A DNA stretch of 35,749 bases, taken from IMG/VR virus record IMGVR_UViG_2541047865_000003; one strand, 5' to 3'. The notes below the pieces were generated by a model. That model was not told the origin of the DNA. It saw nothing but the letters and a program-made list of their open reading frames with translations, and did not search any database. This DNA is from a virus (Duplodnaviria > Heunggongvirae > Uroviricota > Caudoviricetes). This document shows positions 2,348-35,749 of the stretch, one piece after another. The position numbers and the translations under genes were made by a program. Position 1 is the first letter of the stretch, and each line of letters begins with the position of its first letter.

Positions 2348-2800
2348 GGTTCGGCATTACCCGTTGGTGTGCCTGTCCCGTGGCCTTCCGCCACTCCGCC
2401 AACAGGCTGGCTAAAATGCAATGGTGCGGCTTTTTCTGCTGAAGAATACCCGGAACTGGCAAAGGTTTATCCGACAAATAAATTGCCTGATTTACGCGGT
2501 GAATTTATTCGTGGCTGGGATGACGGACGTGGAGTGGATGCCGGGCGACAATTATTATCTTCACAGGGGGATGCAATAAGAAATATTGAGGGATTCGCAG
2601 ATGGCGGGATCGGTATGTCTTTTGATGCAATCAGAGGGGCTTTTTACGATGCAGGAACACGATCAGCGAGAATGCCGAATAACACAACTACTATAGACAA
2701 AACCGATGACCTTGGATTCGACGCCTCTCGTGTCGTGCCAACAGCTAATGAAAACCGTCCACGTAACATCGCCTTTAATTATATTGTGAGGGCTGCATAA
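2348..2800 (+). CDS. Alternative tail-fibre C-terminal variable segment (Sv'), no own start; would fuse to the constant S N-terminus after inversion
   Basis: Frame open through the crossover site, encoding the same NLGLGE junction as the S gene, then a receptor-binding-like region (PVGVPVPWPSATPPTGWLKCNGAAFSAEEYPELAKVYP). Stop at 2798-2800 overlaps the start of the downstream assembly gene. Confidence 0.65.
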   Translation, partial: GSALPVGVPVPWPSATPPTGWLKCNGAAFSAEEYPELAKVYPTNKLPDLRGEFIRGWDDGRGVDAGRQLLSSQGDAIRNIEGFADGGIGMSFDAIRGAFYDAGTRSARMPNNTTTIDKTDDLGFDASRVVPTANENRPRNIAFNYIVRAA

Positions 2801-3393
2801 TGAAACCTGTTTTTGATGAAAATGGGCTGGCTACAGTGCCGGGTGATATGCGTTGTTTTTATTATGATGCAGTAACGTCTGAATATACGGGCTGGTCTGA
2901 TGAATATATTAATACTGGCGTAAGTATGCCCGCCTGTTCCACTGGTATTGACCCGGGCGAATACATTCCGGGGAAAGTGGCAGTATTTACGGGTAAGGGA
3001 TGGAGCCATGAAGAAGACCACCGCAATGAGACTGTTTACTCAATCGAAAATGGCGCAGCTGTTACAGTGGATTATATCGGTGCCATCAAAGACGGTTATG
3101 TCACGCTTTCACCGTTAACGCCATACGATAAATGGGATGGTGAGAAATGGGTGACAGATACTGAGGCACAGCATAGTGCCGCACTAGACGCGGCAGAAGC
3201 ACAGCGCCAGTCGCTGATTGATGCTGCAATGGCTTCCATCAGTCTGATTCAACTGAAATTACAGGCCGGGCGGAAGCTGACGCAGGCAGAAACAACCCGA
3301 CTTAACGCCGTGCTGGATTATATTGACGCGGTGACGGTAACAGATACCAGCACTGCGCCGGATGTCATCTGGCCTGAACTGCCGGAGGCGTAG
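2800..3393 (+). CDS. Tail-fibre assembly protein (U'-like, alternative orientation)
   Basis: 197 aa with the conserved C-terminal assembly-chaperone motif (…DTSTAPDVIWPELPEA). TAATG overlap with Sv'. Confidence 0.75.
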   Translation: MKPVFDENGLATVPGDMRCFYYDAVTSEYTGWSDEYINTGVSMPACSTGIDPGEYIPGKVAVFTGKGWSHEEDHRNETVYSIENGAAVTVDYIGAIKDGYVTLSPLTPYDKWDGEKWVTDTEAQHSAALDAAEAQRQSLIDAAMASISLIQLKLQAGRKLTQAETTRLNAVLDYIDAVTVTDTSTAPDVIWPELPEA

Positions 3394-3805
3394 GCCATTC
3401 AATATCTGGCGCACCGGAAGTATCGACCAGTTCCAGTGTGTCCAGATAATCCAGCCACAAATTATATTGCGCCAGTTCCTCACCTTTCAGGCGACCAATC
3501 GCCGCTTTACCAGGCCATTGCTTACTGTTTATGTATTCGTTGACCTGATTAATCAATTGCTGCTTTTCCAGTTCGGCTGCGGCAATTTGTTCCTCATGAG
3601 TTGGCGGTGGAATATCAATCCATGCAGGCATTCCGTCGATGACACCTCTGTATTTTCCTTCTGGTGCTTCCTTCATAAATTCGGCGGCAACAGTGTCGTC
3701 AATTTCGATTCCATCATCGGGCCATTCGCCGGATTCCTGATAAGCGATTTTAAGCTCCACAGGGAAAAACGCATTTTTATCGGCACTGAAAATATATTTC
3801 TGCAT
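3365..3805 (-). CDS. Tail-fibre assembly protein (U-like, currently expressed orientation)
   Basis: 146 aa, C-terminus …DTSGAPDIEWPTPP. Immediately follows the S gene; 3' end converges on and overlaps the U' 3' end. Confidence 0.75.
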   Translation of the reverse strand: MQKYIFSADKNAFFPVELKIAYQESGEWPDDGIEIDDTVAAEFMKEAPEGKYRGVIDGMPAWIDIPPPTHEEQIAAAELEKQQLINQVNEYINSKQWPGKAAIGRLKGEELAQYNLWLDYLDTLELVDTSGAPDIEWPTPPAVQAR

Positions 3806-3807
3806 TT

Positions 3808-4653
3808 CTACCGTCCTATCGAAATATAACTGAATCTGTATTGCTGTGAGATATCACTGGTTGCCACACGCCACGCTGAATTACTGATATGTTCAAAATT
3901 TACAGACAAAACCTGCGGGGCAGGATTCGACGGGTCTGACTGAACGGCATCAGACATAACACTGACTGAAACCATCGGCTGATTAGGGAATGGTATAGGG
4001 AAGTGTCCACTGATAAAGCGGGTCGTGTTTCCTGAAAAAGTGCCAAACTGAACAATATATCCACCTGGTAGCCTGAACCATCCCGAACCAGAAGCGAATG
4101 CTCCCATATCCGGTATCTGATTATCTCCTGTGCCCACATCCCTTTTCGCCGCTTCTCCCAAACCAAGGTTTTGAAGAAAGGCTGCCTTATCGGGAATATC
4201 CGCACCGTTCTGGTCTTTGGCCAGTTTCTCCGCCAGCTTGTTCAGCACTGTGGTCGCAAAGTTCGGATCGTTGCCAAGGGCATCAGCCAGCTCTTTCAGC
4301 GTATCCAGTGTTTCTGGGGCTGTACCTGCAAGCGCAGCAATCGCCCTCGCCACAAATTCTGTCGTCACCAGCTTTTTGCTGTTGTCATTAGCTGCAGGCG
4401 TGGGGGCTGTTGGCGTACCCGTGAATGTTGGGCTGGCCTTCGTCGCATACTGGGTATGCGGGTCGGCCGCTGCGATGTGTTTCGCGAGATCTGAACCGCC
4501 TTTTTCAACCTGCTGTTTCAGGTATGAAGTACGGCTGGCCAGCTGTTTAGCCTGACGGTTAGAAATTCCATCAGGCCCACCCAGTACGGGGTCGGAGACC
4601 TCAATCTGGTAGATGCCGTCTTCCCACTGCGGGGTTTCGGGTAGATTTGCCAT
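3808..4653 (-). CDS. Tail-fibre protein (constant N-terminal part 4180..4653 plus variable part inside the invertible segment)
   Basis: 281 aa with a typical tail-fibre N-terminus (MANLPETPQWEDGIYQIE…) and the hix-encoded NLGLGE junction. Crossover site lies inside the coding sequence at 4154-4179. Confidence 0.85.
   Translation of the reverse strand: MANLPETPQWEDGIYQIEVSDPVLGGPDGISNRQAKQLASRTSYLKQQVEKGGSDLAKHIAAADPHTQYATKASPTFTGTPTAPTPAANDNSKKLVTTEFVARAIAALAGTAPETLDTLKELADALGNDPNFATTVLNKLAEKLAKDQNGADIPDKAAFLQNLGLGEAAKRDVGTGDNQIPDMGAFASGSGWFRLPGGYIVQFGTFSGNTTRFISGHFPIPFPNQPMVSVSVMSDAVQSDPSNPAPQVLSVNFEHISNSAWRVATSDISQQYRFSYISIGR
4154..4179. repeat. gix/hix-like recombination crossover site (copy inside the tail-fibre gene)
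   Basis: TTCTCCCAAACC-AA-GGTTTTGAAGAA. Inverted partner of 2322-2347. Confidence 0.75.
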
Positions 4654-24703: not shown

Positions 24704-25430
24704 AGCTGCCGCCTCCCCAGGTGAGATAACGCGGGGCCAGTTCGTGCAGGATGCGCTGCGGATAATGACGGTTCTCCCGCCAGTTGGCAGTGCTGCGTCC
24801 GGCATTCACCGTGGCGACATGACCAAACCAGCGGGTGCTGTCCAGCCCCTGCTGCGAGGCCAGCCGTTTGTCCCGCTGTACCCAGCCCAGACCACCGTTA
24901 TAGCCTGACAGCGTCATGGCCATACGCTCGCAGTCATTGACGGCGCTGACGCGTTGCCACAGCCAGCGGTCATAGCTGACCAGCGCCCGGATGGCCCAAG
25001 ACGGATTAAACGGTTCACGGCTGTTAAGCCCCGGCATCAGCTGACTTATCCAGTCAGCGGTGGTGGGCATAAACTGCGCCAGTCCCTGAGCGCCAACCGG
25101 CGAGACCGCATCAGGTCGCCAGCCGCTTTCCTGATGCAGCTGCGCGGCGAAGTCGGCCACCGGCGCAGACATTCCCCATTCAAGCCGGGCATTACGGATC
25201 ACATCGTCGCGATACTGCAGCGCGGTCTGCGGTGGCTGGGCAGCGCGGGCCTGACTGAAGAAGCCGCCACACCAGAGCAGCCAGGCTACCGTTACTGAAC
25301 CAAAGAGCTGCCACCAGAAACTGTGCTTACCCGTTCGGGCCTGCCCGTGGCGGGCCAGTTCGATGCCCAGCCCCAGCAGTACCAGCACGGCCCAGACAAC
25401 CTGAGGCCAGTACATATAGAGGGTCATCAT
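24693..25430 (-). CDS. Lytic transglycosylase (SLT domain) endolysin with N-terminal membrane anchor
   Basis: SLT catalytic motif (…LHQESGWRPDAVSPVGAQGLAQFMP…); hydrophobic N-terminal segments; sits between the holin-like gene and the spanins. Confidence 0.8.
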   Translation of the reverse strand: MMTLYMYWPQVVWAVLVLLGLGIELARHGQARTGKHSFWWQLFGSVTVAWLLWCGGFFSQARAAQPPQTALQYRDDVIRNARLEWGMSAPVADFAAQLHQESGWRPDAVSPVGAQGLAQFMPTTADWISQLMPGLNSREPFNPSWAIRALVSYDRWLWQRVSAVNDCERMAMTLSGYNGGLGWVQRDKRLASQQGLDSTRWFGHVATVNAGRSTANWRENRHYPQRILHELAPRYLTWGGGSCVD

Positions 25431-25780
25431 TAAAGCCCCATCGCTACGGCCAGACAGACTGCAGCAACAATCAGCGCACGGCGGATTAGCGCAGCAGAAA
25501 AGACCAGGTGAAGGCCAGTCTGGACAGGGAAGCGACCATCAGCCATCAGCCTGTCATCATGCTTCAGGTACTGACCGGGACGGGCTTTGGGGAAAAGCGA
25601 ACGGTCAAGCCAGTAGCCCAATACTGCCGCCAGCGTGATGAGTGATAGCTTGTAGACAACCACCGGCAGCTGCTGGGGCGATACCAGACCGATGGTGCCG
25701 AGCAGCAGCACAGCGGTCAGCAGCCAGCCGCTGAGACGTGGCTTTTTAACAGGGGGAATGAATTTTTTCAGGTTTTTCAT
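25430..25780 (-). CDS. Putative holin (three hydrophobic helices)
   Basis: Start at MKNLKKF… preceded by an AAGGAG RBS; three predicted TM segments; first gene of the late arm with ATGA overlap to the endolysin. Confidence 0.5.
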   Translation of the reverse strand: MKNLKKFIPPVKKPRLSGWLLTAVLLLGTIGLVSPQQLPVVVYKLSLITLAAVLGYWLDRSLFPKARPGQYLKHDDRLMADGRFPVQTGLHLVFSAALIRRALIVAAVCLAVAMGL

Positions 25781-26027
25781 GAGCGTCTCCTTGTGTAGTG
25801 GAGACAGCATCACAAATGGTCGGGGAAAGGGATTTTAAACAGCGTTAATAGTGAGGATGCAGACGTGAACCGCATGATGGCTTTGAAAGAACGACCAGCC
25901 CGGTGCGGTAACACCAGGCTGGTCATCAACCCACAGGTATGCACTGTGAGCCGACCAGGGTTCAGTCAGTCTCGCGAGACCAGACTAGCCTGCCATATTT
26001 TCATTGATTGCAAAAGGCTTACGGATA

Positions 26028-26798
26028 ATGAAAGAACAATCTTTACCCATCGTCCCATGGATTGGCGGTAAACGTCGTCTGGCGAAGCATATTTTACCAT
26101 TGTTTCCGGCCCATACCTGCTATGTGGAGCCGTTCTGCGGGGCAGCTGCGCTCTATTTCCTAAAGACTCCCAGCAAGACCGAAGTCATTAACGATATCAA
26201 CGGGGAACTGGTGAACCTCTATCGGGTGGTCAAGCATCATCTGGAAGAATTTATTCGCCAGTTCAAATGGGCGCTGGTCAGCCGTCAGATTTACAAATGG
26301 TTGCAGGATACGCCGGAAGAAACGCTCACCGACATTCAGCGGGCGGCCCGGTTCTACTACCTGCAGAAACAGGCATTTGGCGGCAAGGTCGCCGATCACA
26401 CATTCGGTACCTCTACAACCAGTGCGCCGCGCTTCAATTTGCTGCGTATTGAGGAAGAACTGTCGATGGCACACCTGCGCCTGTCGAGAACGCTGATAGA
26501 GCATCTGGACTGGCACCAGTGCATAGAGCGATATGATCGCCCGCATACGCTGTTCTACTGTGACCCACCGTACTGGGGAACGGAAGGCTATGGTGTGGAG
26601 TTCGGGCTGGAAAACTATGATCACATGGCAGATTTAGCGCGAAGGATCAAAGGGAAGATGATTATATCAGTGAACGATATCCCGGAAATGCGGCAGGTAT
26701 TCAACGGTCTGAACATGCAGTCGGTTGATATCAGCTACAACCTTAAGGTAACAGGCAAACCCAGCCCGAAGAAAGAGCTGGTAATTTGTAATTTTTGA
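26028..26798 (+). CDS. DNA adenine methyltransferase (Dam-like, N6-adenine)
   Basis: SAM-binding motif (FCGAAALYF) and catalytic DPPY motif. Start chosen at MKEQSLPIVPWIGGK…; the track ORF begins 24 nt upstream. Confidence 0.75.
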   Translation: MKEQSLPIVPWIGGKRRLAKHILPLFPAHTCYVEPFCGAAALYFLKTPSKTEVINDINGELVNLYRVVKHHLEEFIRQFKWALVSRQIYKWLQDTPEETLTDIQRAARFYYLQKQAFGGKVADHTFGTSTTSAPRFNLLRIEEELSMAHLRLSRTLIEHLDWHQCIERYDRPHTLFYCDPPYWGTEGYGVEFGLENYDHMADLARRIKGKMIISVNDIPEMRQVFNGLNMQSVDISYNLKVTGKPSPKKELVICNF

Positions 26799-26812
26799 AA
26801 GAGGTAGTTAAA

Positions 26813-26838
26813 GGTGGTGGTGCATCTGCAGCACCACC
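26813..26838. terminator. Hairpin between convergent Dam-like and lipoprotein genes (candidate bidirectional terminator)
   Basis: GGTGGTGGTGC-ATCT-GCAGCACCACC, 11-bp stem with one mismatch, between the two stops (26798 and 26846); flanking T-rich sequence on both sides but no clean U-tract. Confidence 0.45.
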
Positions 26839-26845
26839 TAAACAT

Positions 26846-27379
26846 TTAATCCTGCCTTGGACAAGTCCAATAATCATTATCTGGCTCTGGTGAATAAGCT
26901 TTCAAACAACCTGCTCGCGGGGTCTTACCATCATCTGTCATAGGAACTTTTTCCTTATCAAGTTTCACGGTCAGGTCTCCACCAGGAACATCCGTTTTAT
27001 CGAAAAAAACAGCCTGACATGCTGATTTAGATATTTTCACTTCGTGGGCATTATTTGATATGAACAAATAACAATTATGACCAGAGGCTATGTAGTCACT
27101 TGGAATATTATTTTCGTCTTTAATATGAAACTGCACCGTTGTCACCGGGCGTTCGCTATCCTCGGATACTTCGACTTTTTCAAAACTGTCCGCGTACTTA
27201 TCCAGGCCGGGGAGTTGTTGGCGAATAAACGGTAATTCGCGATTTACAACCGGATTATCTGTTTCAACGCTAAAAACCGCGTGCTCCTTAGCTGTGGTGG
27301 ACGTATCAGCAGGATCGGTATTATCTCCACACCCAGATAAAACAAATATCAACGGTAAAAATAATTTGCGCATAGTCAT
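26846..27379 (-). CDS. Lipoprotein of unknown function (177 aa), AT-rich moron downstream of the repressor
   Basis: Signal peptide MTMRKLFLPLIFVLSGC with lipobox; mature part has four more Cys; AT-rich codons; RBS ~35 nt after the repressor stop on the same strand. Confidence 0.65.
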   Translation of the reverse strand: MTMRKLFLPLIFVLSGCGDNTDPADTSTTAKEHAVFSVETDNPVVNRELPFIRQQLPGLDKYADSFEKVEVSEDSERPVTTVQFHIKDENNIPSDYIASGHNCYLFISNNAHEVKISKSACQAVFFDKTDVPGGDLTVKLDKEKVPMTDDGKTPRAGCLKAYSPEPDNDYWTCPRQD

Positions 27380-27414: not shown

Positions 27415-27825
27415 TTAACCCGTATTTTTTAATCTTTCGAACGCTGCGGACAGCTCCTTAAGCTGTTTTTCCATATCAATCATTCGCTGTTTTTCCTCAG
27501 CGCCTCGCAGCAACTCTTTTCGCACCTCTGGCTCCAGTTGGTTGAGCAGCTCCAATAACTTCAGATCAGACTGGTTGAAATGCTGCTCCTGATTAGCTGG
27601 CTGTGCTTTCTCTACCCCAACAGCTTCCCCTTTACCAGTAAGTAGCCAATCTATTGATATGTTCAAATGGGTGCTTAGCGCAACAAGAGCCTCTGCATTA
27701 GGTTCTCTCTCTCCACGCAGATAGTTTTGAAGTGAGCGATATGGAATTTTTGACAAGTCTGACAATGCCTTAATTGTCAGACCCTTAGCATCCATCGCTT
27801 CGCGCAATCTCTCTTTTATACTCAT
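27415..27825 (-). CDS. Prophage repressor (XRE-family HTH)
   Basis: Start at MSIKERLREAMDAKGLTIKALSDLSKIPYRSLQNYLRGER… (HTH), C-terminal coiled-coil-like region. Divergent from the early operon across an ~88-bp promoter/operator region. Confidence 0.7.
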   Translation of the reverse strand: MSIKERLREAMDAKGLTIKALSDLSKIPYRSLQNYLRGEREPNAEALVALSTHLNISIDWLLTGKGEAVGVEKAQPANQEQHFNQSDLKLLELLNQLEPEVRKELLRGAEEKQRMIDMEKQLKELSAAFERLKNTG

Positions 27826-27841
27826 TTGAACATATCTCAAT

Positions 27842-27869
27842 TTGACATACCCGTTTGGGTGCGTACAAT
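27842..27869 (+). promoter_or_regulatory. Candidate sigma70 early promoter (TTGACA-16-TACAAT) with overlapping operator dyad
   Basis: TTGACA at ~27842-27847 and TACAAT at ~27864-27869, upstream of the Ner-like gene. Inverted repeat TTGGGT(N11)ACCCAA straddles the -10; a further ACCCAA lies ~20 bp downstream. Confidence 0.5.
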
Positions 27870-27913
27870 AGACCCAATAGAGTACATCATAACCCAACAG
27901 GAACACGGTGCAT

Positions 27914-28138
27914 ATGAACAAACAACAAGTTCGGGCACGGCTGGTTGAAAGAGGCAGTAGCTTGCGCCAGTTCGCGCTTAACGCGGGCTATGAGCCACGA
28001 ACAGTCACCCAGGCTGTCAGCCGCTGGGCAGGCAAAAGCGAACTTCCACGCGGTCGTTTGACTTATCGGATTTTGCGAGACCTTTCGGTCGCAATAGGCA
28101 AAGAAGTTACCCCCGGCATCCTCAAGGAGGCGTCATGA
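27914..28138 (+). CDS. Ner-like DNA-binding early regulator
   Basis: …LRQFALNAGYEPRTVTQAVSRWAGKSE… resembles the Mu Ner core; first gene of the early operon, divergent from the repressor. Confidence 0.65.
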   Translation: MNKQQVRARLVERGSSLRQFALNAGYEPRTVTQAVSRWAGKSELPRGRLTYRILRDLSVAIGKEVTPGILKEAS

Positions 28139-33287: not shown

Positions 33288-33476
33288 ATGTCCATCAAAT
33301 GTATCAACTGCCAGAAAGGTATCACCACCCTGAAGTTCAGCGACGCCAGCGTCATTTCCTCCGGTAAGTACCGCGTACCAGCCGTCCTCATCACGCTGGT
33401 ATGCCCACACTGTAGCCAGCATTACTACACCGAAGTCCCGGCCATGGAATTCATCCCTTGTGAGGCAAAGAAATGA
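33288..33476 (+). CDS. Com-like zinc-ribbon protein (62 aa)
   Basis: Two Cys pairs (CINC…CPHC). Pattern and length resemble Mu Com as recalled from memory (MKSIRCKNC…CPRCKRH). AAGGAA RBS; 3' end overlaps the next gene (ATGA). Confidence 0.5.
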   Translation: MSIKCINCQKGITTLKFSDASVISSGKYRVPAVLITLVCPHCSQHYYTEVPAMEFIPCEAKK

Positions 33477-34945: not shown

Positions 34946-35363
34946 GCAGCGTCTTATTCAACTCATTCATATTGCCCGCAGCGACCTCCAGATGGATGAG
35001 GACACCTACCGCCAGATGCTACAGGGGCTGACCGGCAAAGCCTCAACCAAAGGGATGGATACCCCACAGCTAAACCGCGTGCTGGAATCAATGAAAAAGA
35101 AAGGCTTTCGCATTAAGCCTGCCGGGAAAGCCAAGTCCGGCTTACCGCTCGACAGCCATCCGCAGTCAAAGAAAATCCGTGCGCTATGGCTTGAAATGGC
35201 TGCCGCAGGCATCGTCCGTGACAGTTCAGAGCAGGCGCTGGCGCTGTGGGTTAAACGGGAAACCGGCATCAGCGCGTTACGCTGGCTCAGCAATGAGCAG
35301 GCAAGTAGCGTGATTGAGAAACTGAAGAAGTGGCAGCGCAGAGCTGCGGGAGTGAAGCAATGA
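34935..35363 (+). CDS. GemA-like regulatory protein (Mu gp16 family)
   Basis: Start MMTKQRLIQLIHIARSDLQMDEDTYRQML…, preceded by an AAAGGAG RBS; located immediately before the Mor-like gene as in Mu. Confidence 0.55.
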   Translation: MMTKQRLIQLIHIARSDLQMDEDTYRQMLQGLTGKASTKGMDTPQLNRVLESMKKKGFRIKPAGKAKSGLPLDSHPQSKKIRALWLEMAAAGIVRDSSEQALALWVKRETGISALRWLSNEQASSVIEKLKKWQRRAAGVKQ

Positions 35364-35749
35364 GCGACCTGAATCAGTTTCGTAGTAAAGGGCCGGAACT
35401 GTTGGTGGAACTGGCACAGCATACCTCTGAGACTGTCCGCGAGATTATTGATATCGAACCCGCAGTTGCCGACCAGATTGGTCAGGCCGTCGCGAACCGC
35501 ATGATGCAGGTCTGGGGTGGGCAAAACGTCTATTTTCCGATGGGCATGGTCTGGAAGGTCAGCCAGCGCGACCGGGAAATTTTCCTGGAGTTTGACGGGC
35601 GCAACCATCACGAACTGGCCCGCAAATTTGGTGTTTCACTACAGTGGGTTTACAGCGTGGTGAAGCGGGTCAGAAAAGAAGAACTGGATCGGATGCAGGG
35701 CAAACTGTTTGATGGCGAACCTGATGCCGATACAGGGAAAAAGGAGTAA
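35360..35749 (+). CDS. Mor/C-family transcription activator (middle operon regulator-like)
   Basis: 129 aa from MSDLNQFRSKG…; C-terminal HTH (HELARKFGVSLQWVYSVVKRVRK) and central GGQNVYFP motif parallel Mu Mor (GGGQVYIP … NTVYKAIRR, from memory); ATGA overlap with the GemA-like stop. Confidence 0.65.
   Translation: MSDLNQFRSKGPELLVELAQHTSETVREIIDIEPAVADQIGQAVANRMMQVWGGQNVYFPMGMVWKVSQRDREIFLEFDGRNHHELARKFGVSLQWVYSVVKRVRKEELDRMQGKLFDGEPDADTGKKE

Follow-up and report, generated by a model that had tools for sequence, protein, structure and literature searches.

Why does a transposable prophage keep a DNA methyltransferase gene that has no restriction endonuclease beside it, and what holds the enzyme in check? 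The question is raised by the sequence of IMG/VR record IMGVR_UViG_2541047865_000003 (Caudoviricetes; 35,749 nt, the whole of which is called the window below), which by its gene content is a BcepMu-like transposable prophage (Bcepmuvirus). The gene carries an annotation in thousands of genomes, its placement is likewise known and common, and the finding as first given, an orphan Dam-like methyltransferase in the immunity centre, adds little. The new part is the leader of the gene, which in structure models appears to hide the translation start; this conserved leader and the specificity of a common prophage enzyme are the parts worth following. The explanation that we favor, with moderate confidence, is that the enzyme is an active solitary methyltransferase, encoded by a fixed accessory gene of enterobacterial BcepMu-like prophages, which would be off in the lysogen, gated by its leader, and protective of the progeny phage.

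The methyltransferase and its slot in the prophage

The gene on which the analysis centres is the following:

Methyltransferase open reading frame (ORF), 26028-26798, + strand: ATG start, 256 amino acids; orphan alpha-class (D12/Dam-family) DNA methyltransferase

The ORF is confirmed as real, and its family match lies far beyond chance. Its product matches the Pfam family of D12 class N6-adenine methyltransferases (PF02086; E=1.1e-27, 97.9 bits, cut-off 22) and scores just over the cut-off of the TIGR00571 'dam' subfamily (117.2 bits, cut-off 114.85), while the best PADLOC model is that of a generic Type II methyltransferase (PDLC03253, 377.5 bits). Motifs I (EPFCGAAA, residues 34-41) and IV (DPPY, residues 179-182) stand in the alpha-class order, with the S-adenosylmethionine motif I first, followed by the target-recognition domain (TRD, residues ~95-160) and DPPY. 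Over its whole length the protein can be aligned with DpnM, EcoDam, and M.CbeI, and the nearest solved structures, all of them distant, are DpnM, E. coli Dam, T4 Dam, and 7M6B. Profile matches and motif order together show that the predicted protein belongs to the D12/Dam alpha class. An identical protein is the RefSeq entry 'MULTISPECIES: DNA adenine methylase [Enterobacterales]', present on at least 1000 contigs, and both protein searches with the methyltransferase gave almost exclusively sequences that are at least 93% identical.

No restriction gene adjoins the methyltransferase in the window, in phages KP12 and PhiKM, in JJ1887 (ST131) and GON1437, or in 34 syntenic Enterobacterales loci. 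As its neighbors in the window are a holin and a lipoprotein gene, there is no adjacent nuclease, and the orphan status stated in the first-pass annotation stands. That annotation had also described the gene as convergent with the lipoprotein gene and as part of the immunity centre; both descriptions are borne out, with 47 bp between the two stop codons and with a repressor, an early-promoter-like site, and a ner-like gene just to the right. In JJ1887 and GON1437, the homologue likewise lies between holin and repressor, and the JJ1887 copy is 85% identical to the window protein in amino acids and 81% in nucleotides.

A scan with one genome per species yielded 459 stretches coding for a relative of the methyltransferase. 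The 34 syntenic loci, from Mixta, Photorhabdus, Xenorhabdus, Serratia, Brenneria, Citrobacter, Salmonella diarizonae, Klebsiella, Arsenophonus, and others, have holin and lysin genes running leftward on the - strand and, where the flank is long enough, early genes running rightward on the + strand. In the slot between lysis operon and repressor the methyltransferase is constant and the other genes vary. The methyltransferase is thus shown to occupy the same slot across many genera without a partner nuclease. Since this arrangement is fixed among enterobacterial BcepMu-like prophages, the position of the gene is not unusual: it does differ from that of mom in phage Mu, as had been pointed out, and nothing follows the invertase in the window, but this is the norm of the family. 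A methyltransferase homologue has this slot in 529 of 5426 complete E. coli genomes, and these loci and the 34 from Enterobacterales are all BcepMu-like transposable prophages.

The same data bear on whether the gene is a decaying or inactive passenger. Although the ST131 homologue has never had a motif assigned to it, the window gene keeps an intact reading frame, every catalytic motif is kept, amino-acid identity across genera is 85-99%, and 46 columns are invariant among 10 phage homologues down to 36% identity. We regard an inactive passenger as hardly credible.

Outside the Enterobacterales loci, tblastn returned 91 phage records with a relative at E<=1e-40. Relatives with 58-68% identity include Pseudomonas phage B3 ORF48, Burkholderia phiE125 gp27 and phi1026b gp26, and Vibrio phage VP882 (gp37), as well as genes of Halomonas phage phiHAP-1, Shewanella MuM16-1, Curvibacter TJ1, KS9, and Stenotrophomonas S1. 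Sequence comparison shows that the window methyltransferase falls into a tight clade with B3 ORF48, phiE125 gp27, and VP882 gp37. In most phage relatives the gene lies within or ends the late operon; in MuM16-1 and TJ1 it is found at the right end, which is the mom position.

A conserved and structured leader

Approximately 150 bp before the AUG are conserved more strongly than the coding sequence, and this holds between lineages whose genes further upstream differ. The following elements were recognized:

Conserved upstream element, 25885-26027, + strand: three hairpins P1-P2-P3 in ~125 nt, ~150 nt up to the start codon
P1, 25893-25924, no strand assigned: 13-bp stem with apical GGUGC-N3-AACACC; pairs better on the - strand
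P2, 25932-25948, + strand: CACAG-N7-CUGUG; invariant in Enterobacterales
P3, 25958-25991, + strand: outer stem GGGUU/AGCCU, inner palindrome GUCUCGCGAGAC
Short hairpin, 25998-26015, + strand: U4CA/UG.A4, inside the long-range helix
Long-range helix, 25944-26024, + strand: CUGUGAGCC (25944-25952) paired with GGCUUACGG (26016-26024, -12 to -4 from the AUG); encloses P3 and the short hairpin

The long-range helix is present in both the minimum free energy fold and the RNAalifold consensus. Because the 3' arm of P2 (CUGUG), which can pair instead with the 9-10 nt ahead of the start codon, is common to P2 and the long-range helix, the two structures are mutually exclusive. Comparison between lineages reveals that the inner stem of P3 can differ wholly in sequence and still keep its complementarity, and that P2 has compensatory variants (CGCAG/CUGCG, CACUG/CAGUG, CACAU/AUGUG). 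Changes in the 3' arm of P2 go with matching ones in the stretch that precedes the start codon, such as CUGCAAGUC with GGCUUGCAG and CUGCUUUCAG with UGAAGGCAG.

In an alignment of 31 enterobacterial leaders, 91.2% of the cells are paired compared to 85.2% in shuffles (0/500 reached the observed value), and slid controls gave 33-48%. A wider alignment separates the two more clearly (87.1% against 67.6% in shuffles), with all 31 pairs changed on both sides and a covariation score of 0.461 against 0.146 (0/500; slid controls 24-45%). The duplexes formed by each arm with its cognate target have a mean energy of -11.45 kcal/mol versus -9.45 +/- 0.33 kcal/mol when permuted (0/5000), and when each of 13 distinct arms is represented once, the values are -8.68 and -6.37 +/- 0.67 (0/5000). 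The long-range helix is 98% paired and contains 68 G.U cells versus 4 A.C cells; the excess of G.U over A.C cells points to a structure of + strand RNA. As in Mu com-mom, an RNA structure is predicted to lie over the translation start, here in the form of a conserved and covarying helix across the ribosome-binding region. On the basis of these folding models, the leader probably gates translation of the methyltransferase.

A covariance model built of P1-P3 found 49 loci, on the + strand and directly 5' of the methyltransferase or, in loci that have com, of com. The element occurs in phages B3, phiE125, VP882, and MuM16-1 and in ~40 genome loci; the model had no match in 50 kb of E. coli core DNA or at the distant homologues of AM106, phiSM101, and CAM-P21. 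Rfam contained no match for the leader at the gathering score or at E<=1. In Pseudocitrobacter cyperus there is a second, partial copy (27.9 bits, E=4.6e-7; 2832-2916 of the stretch) close to the holin gene, ~1 kb upstream of the full copy.

P1 behaves differently from the other hairpins. On the + strand it has 74 A.C cells versus 25 G.U cells, it is 93% paired on the - strand compared to 86% on the + strand, and a U/C-rich run, GUUCUUUCA, comes after it on the - strand. From this strand preference, P1 is a candidate terminator of leftward antisense read-through from the repressor-lipoprotein unit, by which the lysis operon would be shielded.

Several relatives carry a com gene of the Mu type together with the methyltransferase. 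In phage B3, com overlaps the start of ORF48 (ORF47/48; 3834-4019 in the stretch compared), and it also precedes the methyltransferase in Curvibacter phage TJ1 (~2793-2984 in the stretch compared) and in 14 genome loci, mostly beta-proteobacterial and with com mostly ~150-205 nt upstream (scan labels L044, L048, L049, L051, L054, L055, L060, L070, L074, L079, L084, L086, L087, and L090). Two of the com proteins were checked against PF10122 and scored 60-78 bits. The methyltransferases of B3 (the Com-Dam pair ORF47-ORF48), TJ1, and the 14 loci are 64-68% identical to the window protein, 68-71% in the TRD, and share the same structured element upstream. They differ from the window in that com (PF10122) is inserted between element and methyltransferase and that the cassettes lie on the same strand in or after late operons. 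No com ORF was found at 25781-26027 of the window; the enterobacterial lineage either lost com or never had it.

A zinc-ribbon ORF at 33288-33476 had been taken up as a possible Com for its likeness to Mu Com and was rejected, as it gave no PF10122 hit and an hhalign probability of 5.5%. This ORF (+ strand, 62 amino acids, double CxxC, PHROG 3401) lies in the early/middle operon and is the only small zinc-ribbon ORF of the window. Other readings of the leader were likewise set aside. A small ORF at 25865-26071, running over the leader, is conserved neither in frame nor in length between lineages and is therefore taken as non-coding. The palindrome TCTCGCGAGA and CACAG-N7-CTGTG were considered as repeated protein-binding sites, and no second copy beyond chance was found in the window; a second copy of TAAACAGCGTTAATAG falls within the invertase gene (2096-2111) and was taken as chance.

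Tentatively, and with somewhat less confidence than we place in the progeny-protection account, we propose that the leader represents an undescribed family of cis-regulatory RNA gating com/dam cassettes in Mu-like, phiE125-like, VP882-like, and BcepMu-like enterobacterial phages, in which it would be Com-free in the enterobacterial members, with P1 possibly acting as a terminator and the enzyme being a non-GATC one. If the enterobacterial switch works without Com, it would respond to folding kinetics or to another factor.

Specificity and role of the enzyme

The TRD (residues 95-160) is 68-71% identical within the clade, and since it is conserved as strongly as the catalytic parts, the clade probably shares one specificity. 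Its motif is FGGKV..FGT(S/A)TT..NLLR(I/L)EE, which reads FGGKVADHTFGTSTTSAPRFNLLRIEE in the window protein. E. coli Dam and DpnM (M1.DpnII), as well as T4 Dam, belong to the same fold family and have the same motif order, but their overall identity to the window protein is only 24-27%, and TRD identity is 17% to EcoDam and 23% to DpnM. The NGLxRxN...FNVPxGRYK hairpin of the GATC enzymes EcoDam and DpnM was not found in the clade TRD, in a low-identity alignment that does not prove functional loss; the hairpin was defined by EcoDam-DpnM conservation in our own alignment and not by published contact lists. Against the E. coli Dam equivalog model NF008152, the window protein scores 69.8 bits and fails the cut-off of 441. 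The label 'Dam-like' of the first-pass annotation therefore holds for the family (PF02086, TIGR00571) and fails for a GATC Dam, and by these comparisons it must not be read as GATC.

A true GATC Dam would keep fast-replicating phage DNA methylated or tune transposition or expression, for example by avoiding MutH nicking or by serving a step like that of P1 packaging. It would fit the TIGR00571 match, which is barely above the cut-off, the presence of the GATC enzymes DpnM, EcoDam, and T4 Dam among the nearest solved structures, and the record of the phiE125 homologue, which notes similarity to M.AlwI. The site of M.AlwI, GGATC, contains GATC. Against it stand the failed equivalog model and a TRD in which FGGKV..FGT(S/A)TT replaces the EcoDam/DpnM hairpin. 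GATC is also scarce in the prophage, at 2.0 per kb or half the 3.9 per kb of E. coli core DNA, and does not occur in the regulatory intergenic regions 25781-26027 and 27826-27907. This scarcity does not favor a GATC enzyme or a Dam-dependent control of the Mu mom type. Moreover, a harmless GATC enzyme is hard to square with tight translational control and com linkage. Altogether, we consider a GATC Dam unlikely.

The closest structural neighbors also show how little the family tells about the base. 7M6B is M.CbeI, an N4-cytosine methyltransferase of the alpha class whose DPPY stands at residues 179-182 (PMC8616854). These are the residue numbers of the motif in the window protein; the TRD loop is of similar length, and the clade profile scores M.CbeI at 100 bits and EcoDam at 99.6 bits. 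M.CbeI differs in methylating N4 of cytosine as part of a restriction-modification system of a thermophilic Firmicute, and its TRD identity is 25%. As M.CbeI is as close as EcoDam, family membership fixes neither the site nor the base (N6-adenine or N4-cytosine). The loss of DPPY, which the first-pass annotation had named as a refutation, would be a weak one, because M.CbeI has DPPY yet methylates cytosine.

The prophage also shows a marked avoidance of certain sites. G/C-only hexamer palindromes number 8 at 1603-35749 where 112 are expected (observed/expected, O/E, 0.07), compared to an O/E of 0.52 in E. coli core DNA and of 1.02 for non-palindromic G/C hexamers. CCGCGG, GCCGGC, GGCGCC, GCGCGC, and GGGCCC are absent altogether. 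A/T-containing palindromes have an O/E of 0.71 in the prophage, and several A-containing palindromes are absent as well. The purge of G/C palindromes shows a genome under restriction pressure, but it says little about specificity, since coliphages show this bias in general and several A-containing sites are missing too.

These observations touch on another modification, either by an N4-cytosine enzyme like M.CbeI or by a relaxed, near-non-specific adenine enzyme like Hia5/Hin1523. The likeness to M.CbeI in motif position, profile score, and TRD hairpin length would agree with the former; strict control of expression would suit a promiscuous, potentially harmful enzyme, and the G/C-only palindromes are depleted much more strongly than the A/T-containing ones. 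However, this depletion is seen in coliphages and in E. coli itself and extends to A-containing palindromes, and most characterized D12 enzymes make N6-methyladenine at defined sites. In Haemophilus and Neisseria, Mu-like prophages have, at the mom position, genes for Dam-related, near-non-specific adenine methyltransferases, by which many restriction enzymes are blocked (PMC3299994). These enzymes (Hia5/Hin1523/Nme1821) resemble the window protein in being Dam-related DPPY enzymes of transposable prophages, and theirs replace mom and protect from restriction; they form a separate subfamily, set apart from the window protein by the report of those authors, with B3 ORF48 (64% identical to the window protein) falling outside the 1000 nearest relatives of Hia5 (PMC3299994). 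We judge such a modification to be distinctly unlikely. M.EcoGII was rejected as the identity of the window enzyme, as it is of class beta, and AamA of Acinetobacter was dropped as a characterized relative, being a chromosomal gene for which no link was established.

The best-studied homologue is M.EcoMIV (EC958_1101) of prophage Phi2 in the ST131 strains EC958/JJ1886, a D12 orphan with homologues that have no determined site (Forde et al., 2015, PMC4659465). It is 85% identical to the window enzyme and has the same slot in a related BcepMu-like prophage and the same conserved leader. That prophage belongs to a different lineage (81% nucleotide identity), with no lipoprotein gene beside the methyltransferase and with other small genes between the latter and the holin. 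In mid-log lysogen culture its transcription was well below that of dam, and no motif could be assigned to it in the EC958 methylome from single-molecule real-time sequencing (PMC4659465). Poor transcription in lysogens and the missing motif disfavor self-protective modification in the lysogen, one of the two functions initially suggested; the other, an anti-restriction role, is plausible by analogy, and the earlier interpretation as a whole is partly supported.

The results on M.EcoMIV also weigh on a methylase of lysogenic conversion or lysogeny maintenance, expressed at a low level in the prophage state and acting epigenetically on phage or host promoters. The gene does lie in the immunity region, by the repressor and lysogen-type cargo (the lipoprotein), and a prophage methylase has been reported as necessary for lysogeny of a Burkholderia cenocepacia H111 prophage (bioRxiv 10.1101/2020.03.09.983379). 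Yet the gene runs opposite to the repressor-lipoprotein unit, transcription of the homologue is poor, no extra motif appears in the EC958 lysogen methylome, and the same clade ends late operons in other phages. We consider this role very unlikely.

In the progeny-protection account, the methyltransferase would be kept off in the lysogen, as the M.EcoMIV literature suggests, and made only after induction. In line with silence in the lysogen, a promoter scan found no sigma-70-like promoter upstream of the gene. P2 would form first on the nascent RNA and leave the ribosome site free for a burst of translation, until the more stable long-range helix closes that site; alternatively, some other factor might take the role of Com at the leader. 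The enzyme would then methylate replicating phage DNA, and the progeny would be less sensitive to restriction in the next host. Job and style of translational control would be the same as in Mu com-mom, where progeny DNA is modified, the function is off until late, and translation is blocked by an RNA structure. By this analogy the comparison is functional only: Mu Mom is an unrelated enzyme that makes N6-(1-acetamido)adenine, is encoded after gin at the right end, and depends on Com and C (cf. PMC3299994), whereas the window has nothing after gin.

Several points weigh against this account. Methyltransferase activity is a prediction for the window protein and its clade, and the failure to assign a motif to M.EcoMIV also fits an inactive enzyme (PMC4659465). 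If the site is GATC, a Dam+ enterobacterial host already supplies the modification. Site avoidance persists in the prophage, both for GATC and for A-containing palindromes, and this speaks against blanket protection. Fitting of the covariation alignments to the model favors structure, and P1, pairing better on the opposite strand, may give part of the element another role. Promoter and expression timing of the methyltransferase are likewise putative.

For an enzyme present in about one tenth of the complete E. coli genomes, including ST131, the name 'Dam' or 'DNA adenine methylase' may be misleading in methylome studies. With the covarying leader, the silence of the enzyme in lysogens has a possible explanation that can be tested, and there is a handle for switching the enzyme on, by which specificity and effect on restriction could be measured.

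Neighboring genes and the ends of the prophage

The features around the methyltransferase and at the left end of the window are:

Holin, 25430-25780, - strand: PF13272, E=1.5e-41; opens the leftward lysis/late operon and runs divergently from the methyltransferase
GC-rich hairpin, 26807-26843 (core stem 26812-26839), no strand assigned: in the convergent gap between methyltransferase and lipoprotein genes
Lipoprotein gene, 26846-27379, - strand: 177 amino acids, signal peptide, lipobox LSGC MTMRKLFLPLIFVLSGC; same strand as the repressor gene and 35 bp downstream of it
CI-type helix-turn-helix (HTH) repressor, 27415-27825, - strand: PF01381, PF07022, and PHROG repressor families; start taken at MSIKERL
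Early-promoter-like site, 27842-27869: TTGACA-16-TACAAT
ner-like gene, 27908-28138, + strand
Gin-type serine invertase, 1678-2259, - strand: left end of the window

Leftward from the methyltransferase, on the - strand, follow the holin, an SLT lysin, and then the terminase, head, and tail genes; the holin is annotated with 351 bp in KP12 and JJ1887. On the + strand, the rightward order is ner-like gene, IclR-type HTH, DUF3102, DDE transposase, AAA+ partner, DUF3164, GemA, and Mor (35330-35749). The BcepMu-like assignment is based on the DDE transposase with its AAA+ partner, Mor, GemA, SLT lysin and holin, a gin-type invertase, and divergent central early and late operons. The region is identical in nucleotides to Escherichia phage Phi06_2974 B (100%), and 97.5% and 83% identical to Klebsiella phage KP12 and phage PhiKM (Bcepmuvirus), respectively.

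The lipoprotein had no Pfam or PADLOC match, and its sole family is PHROG 10002, of unknown function. Homologues with 37-49% identity lie in the same place in Photorhabdus and Xenorhabdus and JJ1887 has no lipoprotein gene; by this comparison the gene is variable accessory cargo of the slot. An extension of the repressor ORF up to a TTG at 27921 is possible and would overlap the early-promoter-like site and the start of the ner-like gene; the ATG at 27825 (MSIKERL) is the likelier start.

The first-pass annotation had given the methyltransferase its own terminator-like hairpin. A strong hairpin does exist at 26807-26843, with -21 kcal/mol (z=-3.6) on the + strand and -18.8 kcal/mol (z=-4.4) on the - strand, but it lacks a U-run on the + strand, and the terminator scan did not call it. 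As the - strand continues into UUUAACUACCUCUUUC, it suits the lipoprotein/repressor transcript at least equally well.

Upstream of the holin, the motif GGATTTTAAAC(A/G)GCGTTAA(T/G)AG at 25832-25851 is kept between prophages of the E. coli type and the Photorhabdus type. On the - strand it provides a TAAAAT ~50 nt upstream of the holin start, with no match to a -35 element, and is a candidate for a Mor-dependent late promoter.

At the left end, the invertase gene and a truncated host fimbrial usher gene (1-1602) lie ~75 bp apart (1603-1677). With only this distance beyond the invertase, the mom position is empty in the window. The usher gene ends at profile position 320 of 549; from this truncation, the prophage end lies within ~1603-1677 and the insertion has broken the usher gene. 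Beside the invertase lie a tail-collar protein gene and two opposed tail-fibre assembly genes (2800-3393, + strand; 3365-3805, - strand), and by analogy the segment 1678-3805 resembles the G segment of Mu, as a putative invertible tail-fibre segment that would act as a host-range switch.

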